From Escherichia coli (GTDB lineage Bacteria; Pseudomonadota; Gammaproteobacteria; Enterobacterales; Enterobacteriaceae): a stretch of 21,020 nt of DNA. The translations under genes were made by a program, and so were the position numbers. Each line of letters begins with the position of its first letter. Position 1 is the first letter of the stretch. A model generated the notes under the pieces. The model was not told the DNA's origin. It did no database searches and saw nothing but the letters and a program-made list of their open reading frames with translations. The stretch is taken from the NCBI RefSeq assembly GCF_003334385.1, contig NZ_QOWN01000060.1; one strand, 5' to 3'. Shown piece by piece: positions 153 to 1,868 of the stretch.

Positions 153-289
153 AATCTTAACTACAATATGATTCATTTTGATGATTGTTTCATAAGGAAC
201 AGTGAAGTAAGATCTAAGAGGAGTTAAATTTTATACAGTATAATCATAATATTGCAGCAAGGTGGTTATAATTGAAAGAATATTTAGAT

Positions 290-1747
290 ATGAATACATC
301 CCATGTAAGAGTTGTTACTCATATGTGTGGGTTCCTGGTTTGGCTCTATAGTCTTTCAATGTTGCCACCAATGGTTGTAGCATTGTTTTATAAAGAAAAA
401 AGCCTGTTCGTTTTCTTTATAACTTTCGTTATATTTTTTTGCATTGGTGGCGGAGCGTGGTATACAACTAAGAAATCTGGCATTCAATTACGTACCCGTG
501 ATGGGTTTATTATAATTGTAATGTTTTGGATTTTGTTTTCTGTTATTAGTGCATTCCCTTTATGGATTGACTCAGAACTTAATTTAACGTTCATTGATGC
601 TCTGTTTGAAGGGGTTTCTGGAATAACAACAACAGGAGCAACTGTAATTGATGATGTTAGTTCATTACCTCGGGCATATTTGTACTATCGGTCACAGTTA
701 AATTTTATAGGTGGTTTAGGAGTTATTGTTCTGGCGGTTGCTGTATTGCCATTATTGGGTATTGGTGGTGCAAAGCTTTATCAGTCAGAAATGCCGGGGC
801 CATTTAAGGATGACAAACTCACTCCCCGCCTGGCCGATACGTCACGGACACTGTGGATAACTTATTCTTTATTAGGTATTGCTTGTATTGTCTGTTATAG
901 ACTTGCAGGAATGCCTTTGTTTGATGCTATTTGTCACGGGATTTCCACAGTTTCGCTTGGTGGTTTCTCAACTCATAGCGAGAGTATCGGATATTTTAAT
1001 AACTATTTGGTTGAGCTGGTGGCTGGTTCTTTTTCCCTGCTATCGGCTTTCAACTTCACTCTTTGGTATATTGTTATTAGCAGGAAAACGATAAAACCTT
1101 TAATCAGAGATATTGAACTTCGTTTCTTTCTGTTAATAGCCTTAGGGGTGATCATTGTTACCTCTTTCCAGGTCTGGCATATAGGTATGTATGACTTGCA
1201 TGGAAGTTTTATTCATTCGTTTTTTCTTGCCAGCTCCATGCTCACTGATAATGGTTTAGCTACGCAGGATTATGCAAGTTGGCCCACGCATACGATAGTG
1301 TTTTTGCTGTTGTCAAGTTTCTTTGGGGGATGTATAGGTTCAACTTGTGGTGGAATTAAGTCACTTCGATTTCTTATACTTTTCAAACAAAGCAAACACG
1401 AGATAAATCAGCTTTCTCATCCCAGAGCGTTGTTGAGTGTAAATGTAGGAGGGAAGATAGTTACAGATCGTGTAATGAGGTCTGTATGGAGTTTCTTTTT
1501 TCTTTATACTCTCTTCACGGTGTTTTTTATACTGGTGTTAAATGGTATGGGATATGATTTTCTTACATCATTTGCAACAGTGGCTGCATGTATTAATAAT
1601 ATGGGATTAGGTTTTGGGGCTACTGCATCGTCATTCGGAGTGCTTAATGACATTGCAAAATGTTTAATGTGCATAGCTATGATTCTTGGTCGCCTTGAAA
1701 TTTATCCTGTTATTATATTGTTTTCAGGTTTTTTTTGGCGCTCCTAA
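290..1747 (+). CDS. trkG: Trk-system K+ uptake membrane protein TrkG (TrkH/TrkG family), a prophage moron
   Basis: The 485-aa product from ATG 290 begins MNTSHVRVVTHMCGFLVWLYSLSMLPP, which I recognise as the Rac-prophage TrkG N-terminus; length matches K-12 TrkG. Very hydrophobic multi-pass membrane protein. The gene is visibly more AT-rich than the rest of the window. The ORF track's TTG at 272 is rejected in favour of ATG 290. Confidence 0.88.
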   Translation: MNTSHVRVVTHMCGFLVWLYSLSMLPPMVVALFYKEKSLFVFFITFVIFFCIGGGAWYTTKKSGIQLRTRDGFIIIVMFWILFSVISAFPLWIDSELNLTFIDALFEGVSGITTTGATVIDDVSSLPRAYLYYRSQLNFIGGLGVIVLAVAVLPLLGIGGAKLYQSEMPGPFKDDKLTPRLADTSRTLWITYSLLGIACIVCYRLAGMPLFDAICHGISTVSLGGFSTHSESIGYFNNYLVELVAGSFSLLSAFNFTLWYIVISRKTIKPLIRDIELRFFLLIALGVIIVTSFQVWHIGMYDLHGSFIHSFFLASSMLTDNGLATQDYASWPTHTIVFLLLSSFFGGCIGSTCGGIKSLRFLILFKQSKHEINQLSHPRALLSVNVGGKIVTDRVMRSVWSFFFLYTLFTVFFILVLNGMGYDFLTSFATVAACINNMGLGFGATASSFGVLNDIAKCLMCIAMILGRLEIYPVIILFSGFFWRS

Positions 1748-1833
1748 TATATGGCTGATTTATAATTGTGAGTTTAATATTATGTTGACTCACTCATTGA
1801 TCCAATACCTAACTTTACCAGCAACACCTCCGT

Positions 1834-1868
1834 CCCCAGTAGCACTGGCTGCTGGGGTGCGTTTTATT
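1834..1868 (+). terminator. Candidate intrinsic terminator or RNA hairpin downstream of trkG
   Basis: Inverted repeat CCCCAG (1834-1839) / CTGGGG (1852-1857) with a 12-nt loop, followed after 4 nt by TTTTATT (1862-1868). The U-tract is not directly adjacent, so it is weak. Confidence 0.3.

Follow-up and report, generated by a model that had tools for sequence, protein, structure and literature searches.

The trkG gene of Escherichia coli as a probable cargo cassette among the late genes of a full-length Rac prophage

The E. coli DNA analysed here, a stretch of 21,020 nucleotides that is referred to below as the window, raises the question of why a gene for a potassium transporter subunit lies between the lysis and the packaging genes of a prophage, and of how such a gene would be expressed at this position. 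Positions 153-1868 very probably constitute a cargo cassette of Rac that carries trkG, that has the same place and sequence as in E. coli K-12 but is embedded here in a full-length prophage, and that would be governed by its own promoter, by H-NS repression and by its own terminator. The location of trkG in Rac, its low GC content, its repression by H-NS, its promoter and its TTG start codon are already published (PMC4909307; PMC5811629; PMC9898762), and given this textbook status the finding of trkG is not in itself new. The useful yield of the analysis is the anatomy of the cassette within a full-length Rac, with boundaries at ~150 and at 1835-1862 and with a start codon that is probably at 272. 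The features of the locus are as follows.

1-152, plus strand: 3' end of an Rz-type lysis (i-spanin) gene, annotated by PGAP as 'lysis protein', to which rzpR/rzoR of K-12 align; left flank of the slot.
Ending at 93, plus strand: embedded Rz1/rzoR frame, inside the Rz-type gene.
153-271, plus strand: AT-rich leader of ~25% GC, in which the trkG promoter must lie (hexamers read directly and scored).
272-1747 (annotated as 290-1747), plus strand: trkG coding sequence with its probable start, for a TrkH-family K+ (Na+-dependent) transporter subunit (open reading frame, profiles and structures).
1768-1793, plus strand: AT-rich hairpin (GTGAGT...ACTCAC) with no T-run, directly after the trkG stop codon (fold of 1748-1884).
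1831-1868, plus strand: predicted intrinsic terminator, consisting of a stem of 13 bp that has a single bulge and closes on a loop of 4 nt (1831-1861), followed by TTTTATT (1862-1868).
1885-2676, plus strand: gene for a ParB/Srx N-terminal-domain protein, the full-length ynaK (annotation; phrog_620, E = 1e-90).

The encoded protein belongs to the TrkH family, as it matches the Pfam model TrkH (PF02386) with E = 6e-145 over model positions 3-500 of 502, scores 415 bits against the cut-off of 331 for TIGR00933, and matches the Vibrio TrkH structures 3pjz and 4j9u at E = 1e-120. Its score for the TrkH equivalog model NF008020 is 450 bits and falls under the cut-off of 866, which identifies the protein as the TrkG paralogue and not as an orthologue of the core-genome TrkH. 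The TrkG protein of K-12, which has essentially the same sequence, catalyzes Na+-dependent K+ uptake together with TrkA and SapD (PMC9898762).

The assignment of the surrounding DNA to Rac follows from a comparison with the chromosome of E. coli SCU-104, to which bases 1-2700 of the window are 100% identical and from which all 21 kb differ by 42 mismatches. In SCU-104, the same DNA forms the late half of a prophage, the early half of which contains intR, xisR, rcbA, ralR, recT, recE, racC, kilR, sieB, racR and ydaS-ydaV. Since this early half carries the Rac genes from intR to ydaSTUV, with 98.9% identity to the early genes of K-12, the prophage in SCU-104 is Rac. The window spans the late region of Rac in its full-length form and is collinear and near-identical with the Rac of K-12. 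Two genes of the window (2648-3601 and 11003-11398) are pseudogenes with internal stops in SCU-104 but open here, so that the window represents a slightly different and more intact copy. In the full-length Rac of SCU-104 (locus L001, positions 11470-14863), an anti-phage pair, iteA/iteS, is situated between the replication genes and the Q-like gene, and two TolA-like genes lie between the Q-like gene and the holin gene; all of these are absent from the Rac of K-12.

Similarity to K-12 Rac comprises window positions 1-2138 with 99.8% identity and 13699-15458 with 99.6% identity, and trkG is the gene known from K-12 Rac, as the first-pass annotation had stated. Because only these flanking segments match, positions 2139-13698 are missing from K-12, where the remnants are joined in the ynaK-ydaY fusion, and K-12 Rac also lacks everything beyond window position 15458 up to lomR. 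A second K-12 deletion, located upstream, extends over 9.2 kb from ydaW to the 5' part of Rz and has removed the DUF1133 (Q-like) gene, two TolA-like genes, the holin and lysozyme genes and the start of Rz. In K-12, a 2.4-kb piece with trkG is left between the two large deletions. In the window, the annotated open reading frames are all open and the late region is intact, which bears out the earlier impression of a largely intact late region as opposed to the degraded Rac of K-12.

The gene order around the cassette is holin, lysozyme RrrD, Rz-type lysis protein, trkG, ParB/Srx, a glycosyltransferase-like gene, a small open reading frame, small and large terminase subunits, portal, head and tail. 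With the Rz gene ending at 152, the ParB/Srx-like gene starting at 1885 and the small and large terminase subunits starting at 3792 and 4867, respectively, trkG lies between the lysis and the packaging genes, as had been noted at first reading. To the right of the slot, the prophage backbone resumes with ynaK, the K-12 copy of which is truncated at window position 2138. The ParB/Srx protein is followed by a match to phrog_842 ('beta-glucosyl-HMC-alpha-glucosyltransferase'; 'GREB1-related' according to PGAP), and distant Lactobacillus phages have a pair of ParB and phrog_842 at the head of their genomes as well; the role of this pair may lie in packaging or in DNA modification. The third gene of window positions 1885-3788, a 69-amino-acid open reading frame that precedes the small terminase gene, has similarity only to the C-terminal portion of a small-terminase family. 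An Rfam scan of window positions 1-4000 at E <= 1 returned no match.

In terms of base composition, trkG (290-1747) has a GC content of 0.381 and a GC3 of 0.323, the lowest GC3 among the 22 genes of the window. For segments of 1458 nt taken from the remaining 19 kb downstream of 1885, the mean GC content is 0.4835 with a standard deviation of 0.034 and a minimum of 0.427, so that trkG lies ~3 standard deviations under the downstream mean and below every segment of its own size. The leader (153-289) is more AT-rich still, with a GC content of 0.255, and the trailer (1748-1884) has a GC content of 0.409. The initial description of trkG and its flanks as AT-rich is thus confirmed, and the comparison of GC content and codon usage that the first-pass annotation had proposed shows the gene to be deviant, with the qualification that the among-gene spread of GC3 is wide and gives a z of only -1.9, and that trkG, with a synonymous-codon distance of 0.193 from the pooled phage genes, exceeds every other gene of 300 or more codons in this measure without being extreme. 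The low GC content of trkG is already described in the literature (PMC9898762).

Such a composition could also reflect the amino-acid make-up of a hydrophobic membrane protein, with its Phe, Ile and Leu residues, in which case trkG would be an ordinary phage gene and not one of foreign origin. The first two codon positions of trkG are low in GC as well (GC1 0.42, GC2 0.40), as expected for a membrane protein, and the gpM tail gene of the same window is nearly as AT-rich (GC 0.407, GC3 0.336). However, it is at the third codon position, where there is no amino-acid constraint, that trkG ranks lowest of the 22 genes; the leader, which is non-coding, has only 25.5% GC; the host paralogue trkH encodes the same fold at 53% GC (PMC9898762); and the homologues in other Enterobacterales likewise lie under the GC content of their own flanks. 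Amino-acid make-up is therefore hardly credible as the explanation, and the reading of trkG as cargo is retained. The gpM-like gene itself belongs to a composition jump in the tail-tip genes (window 17750-20074), in which the next three genes (L, K and I-like) have GC contents of 0.54-0.60, and which suggests a mosaic joint.

The homologues provide some information on the origin of the gene. TrkG-clade proteins with 62-79% identity over the full length are found in E. fergusonii, Citrobacter, Pectobacterium, Pantoea, Enterobacter, Buttiauxella, Serratia and Xenorhabdus, with identities of 79% in E. fergusonii and 77% in Citrobacter. None of the genomic contexts examined is a phage late region: the neighbours are porin genes in E. 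fergusonii, ychF/pth in Pectobacterium, and an island with a primase and transposases in Serratia. A partial copy with 88% identity is present in E. albertii near the gene for the effector NleF and a phosphatase gene. In the search for a donor, the nearest homologues outside Rac were found to share the open reading frame only, with nucleotide similarity ending at its two ends. By this comparison, the leader and trailer found in Rac are specific to Rac, and because the homologues share neither of them, a joint arrival of trkG and its promoter cannot be shown.

Expression of trkG depends on signals in the leader, where the start codon has to be considered first. Ribosome profiling with tetracycline placed the start of trkG at a TTG codon at -18, which corresponds to window position 272, and a lacZ test at this site was inconclusive (PMC4909307). 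Translation from TTG272 yields a protein of 491 amino acids that begins with MKEYLDMNTSH..., as compared to 485 amino acids from ATG290 in the usual and RefSeq annotation; many homologues are 491 amino acids long. Use of TTG272 is supported by the strong Shine-Dalgarno sequence AAGGTGG at 259-265, by the same arrangement in E. fergusonii, and by a Pectobacterium homologue, in which the position of ATG290 is taken by ATT and the start lies at the equivalent of the TTG. The real start of trkG is thus probably TTG272 and not the annotated ATG290.

This start codon also bears on the promoter. The first-pass annotation had pointed to several TATAAT-like hexamers, and exact copies of TATAAT are indeed present at 239-244 and 267-272. 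The second copy is, however, an unlikely -10 element, because it abuts TTG272 and lies between the ribosome-binding site and the start codon. The copy at 239-244 is the better -10 candidate and would give rise to a 5' leader of ~20 nt. In addition, the leader region holds a second promoter-like pair, TTTAAA (143-148) and TATGAT (167-172). Overall, promoter-like hexamers are no more frequent than expected by chance: a scan of the leader for consensus -35/-10 pairs found 6 sites against 7.1 expected, and the best site in a weight-matrix scan for sigma-70 promoters, TTTAAA 143/TATGAT 167, was equalled by 40% of shuffles, so that a -10 element cannot be assigned from the sequence alone. The high-affinity H-NS motif TCGATAAATT was uninformative: it occurs 33 times in the window, where 25 occurrences would be expected, and is absent from the leader.

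These scans would be compatible with trkG having no promoter of its own and being made on a longer transcript, which would either be that of the late operon or reach trkG by read-through out of the early-right operon, with the TATAAT copies as chance products of AT-rich DNA. The presence of two perfect copies has a P of ~0.04 in shuffles of a leader this AT-rich, one of the two abuts the start codon, and all late genes upstream are read in the same direction as trkG. Expression in K-12 argues strongly in the opposite direction. K-12 Rac lacks the Q-like gene and the region from ydaW to the 5' part of Rz, yet trkG is expressed, and the early-right operon of K-12 Rac is repressed by RacR (PMC5700373). 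As the Q-like gene and the late promoter region are both missing, trkG expression in K-12 must originate from a local promoter. Accordingly, a fragment upstream of trkG drives a lux reporter in K-12, where trkG is expressed at about the level of trkH and is partly repressed by H-NS (PMC9898762). Genomic SELEX revealed a constitutive RpoD promoter at trkG, among very few in the K-12 prophages, with binding of the holoenzyme in vitro (PMC5811629). Production of trkG solely as part of the late transcript is ruled out by its published expression in a strain without the Q-like gene, and dependence on a longer transcript in general is very improbable. The leader is best regarded as the probable site of a dedicated trkG promoter.

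At the other end of the gene, the hairpin and T-run seen at first reading hold up on closer analysis. The stem-loop at 1831-1861, which TTTTATT (1862-1868) follows directly, has a predicted energy of -22.5 kcal/mol with z = -3.4, a value that 0 of 200 shuffles reach; trkG is predicted to have its own factor-independent terminator. The T-run and part of the stem are common to relatives without trkG, in which the stem is different and much weaker, and this places the right junction of the cassette inside the terminator.

The comparison with trkG-less relatives had been put forward in the first-pass annotation as a means to define the insertion boundaries, and it bounds the cassette on both sides. 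On the left, the Rz genes of trkG-less prophages are similar up to the Rz stop codon (~150) in alignments, and to 122-130 by megablast. On the right, three trkG-less prophages with a ParB-to-terminase block of 93-96% identity align from 1835 or 1862 onward, with the T-run, ribosome-binding site and ParB start in common. It is this loss and recovery of similarity that delimits the cassette, at limits very close to the 153-1868 of the first-pass annotation. An exact empty site, in which the Rz end found here is joined to the ParB start found here without trkG, occurs in 0 of 5426 genomes, so that the two boundaries are taken from different relatives.

Other prophages carry different genes in this slot. 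A DLP12-like prophage has iss/bor there and IHE3034 has genes for DUF1398 and YlcI, in both cases beside a related Rz. In WY517-2 the slot is filled by an enterotoxin A/B gene pair with a GC content of 0.395, and in NRZ103545 it is almost empty, with 323 bp between the last lysis gene and the ParB-like gene. The Rac-like prophage of WY517-2 (locus L005; 291-1558 and 3335-4472), which is without trkG, additionally harbours a subtilase-family AB5 toxin gene (eplA) upstream of the holin gene. In lambdoid phages, the slot after the spanin genes is the home of lysogenic-conversion genes. A more far-reaching model would make the slot a defined site of cargo exchange, with the right recombination joint in the terminator, where the T-run and ribosome-binding site are shared and the stems are cassette-specific, and at which trkG, enterotoxins and iss are swapped while trkG is kept by host selection. 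Under this model, host selection on trkG would cause right-hand similarity to end at many points just beyond the gene. As an extension of the model, TrkG might also be of help to the phage in its lytic cycle. We consider the model unlikely.

The distribution of trkG bears on the question of which partner benefits from the gene. It is present in 1551 of 5426 complete E. coli genomes, with 1516 records at least 99% identical; the whole Rz-trkG-ParB stretch is found in 1039 genomes and the full right flank in 889. In other genomes, the match to the right flank ends at window position 1747, 1827, 1913, 2115, 2138, 2233 or 2305, or further on (to 3205). These varied end points are read as separate deletions that spared trkG, some of which could instead be IS insertions or rearrangements. 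Together with recE, trkG is the best-conserved gene of Rac (PMC5700373). As for individual end points, 1747 is the trkG stop codon, 1827 lies just before the terminator, and 2138 and 2115 are those of K-12 and BL21, respectively. There are also 15 trkG matches on records classed as plasmids, a possible example being NZ_CP081685.1 (304 kb, strain 0H23). Ten 'phage' records with trkG were considered as proof of a particle-forming Rac and discarded as such: the one inspected, ON470614, has the look of an excised prophage, extending from the integrase to a cut-off tail gene.

A mainly phage-directed role of trkG, be it the restoration of K+ during lytic growth or interference with superinfection, would render its place in the late operon functional. 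The gene does form part of the late transcription unit, with lysis genes before it and packaging genes after it, full-length Rac copies keep it (the 889 genomes with the same right flank), and PHROGs already includes a full-length TrkG family (phrog_1916, function unknown there). On the other hand, trkG is also kept at 99% identity or more, with varied right end points, in prophages that have lost their late genes, including that of K-12, and this retention points to a benefit for the host. Furthermore, TrkG has no match among the PADLOC defence models, where the ParB-like protein matches only a methyltransferase N-domain model, and the published phenotypes concern the K+ supply of the host (PMC9898762). 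A role that mainly serves the phage is therefore quite improbable, and trkG is better understood as a gene retained for the host.

The working of the cassette may then be envisaged as follows. TrkG would combine with TrkA and SapD of the host into a second, Na+-dependent K+ uptake system, encoded by a cassette that occupies the variable slot separating the spanin genes from the ParB-like/terminase block. In the lysogen, trkG would be driven by a dedicated sigma-70 promoter within the 25%-GC leader under partial repression by H-NS, and transcription would probably end at the hairpin and T-run at 1831-1868, the putative terminator. During lytic growth, Q-modified late transcription would be expected to proceed through trkG and the terminator into the packaging genes. 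Read-through of terminators by Q-modified polymerase is established for lambda and is the basis of this expectation for Rac. In relatives, the same slot holds toxin or serum-resistance genes, and the 2.4-kb trkG piece of K-12 between its two large deletions illustrates how a host can retain a cargo gene of a prophage.

Several known systems can be compared with this locus. The closest is K-12 trkG (b1363) in the cryptic Rac prophage, which is the same gene with the same leader, trailer and neighbours (rzpR/rzoR on the left and ynaK on the right; 99.8% identity over 2138 nt), but whereas the flanking late genes are complete here, K-12 has suffered large losses in the late region and upstream. 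The core-genome TrkH of E. coli and Vibrio (3pjz, 4j9u) belongs to the same Pfam family over its full length and uses the same partner, TrkA (PMC9898762). It differs from TrkG in the GC content of its gene (53%, compared to 38% for trkG), while Na+-dependent K+ uptake, the uptake of Na+ as well and repression by H-NS set TrkG apart (PMC9898762). The chromosomal and island-borne TrkG-clade genes of other Enterobacterales resemble trkG of Rac in that their GC content is also under that of their surroundings.

Among phage cargo genes, trkG resembles the lambdoid morons, extra gene units as understood by Juhala/Hendrix, in being a lone gene unrelated to phage growth, with a deviant composition, its own promoter (as published) and a predicted terminator, and it occupies the same place right after the spanin genes as bor of lambda and borD/iss of DLP12. 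It differs from these in orientation, being co-directional with the late operon whereas iss/bor are on the opposite strand, and in its product, a large transporter of the 12-helix class as compared to the small lipoprotein encoded by bor/iss. The right-hand context is different as well, since trkG is followed by the ParB-like and glycosyltransferase-like genes before the terminase genes, whereas the slot of bor/iss is followed by cos/nu1.
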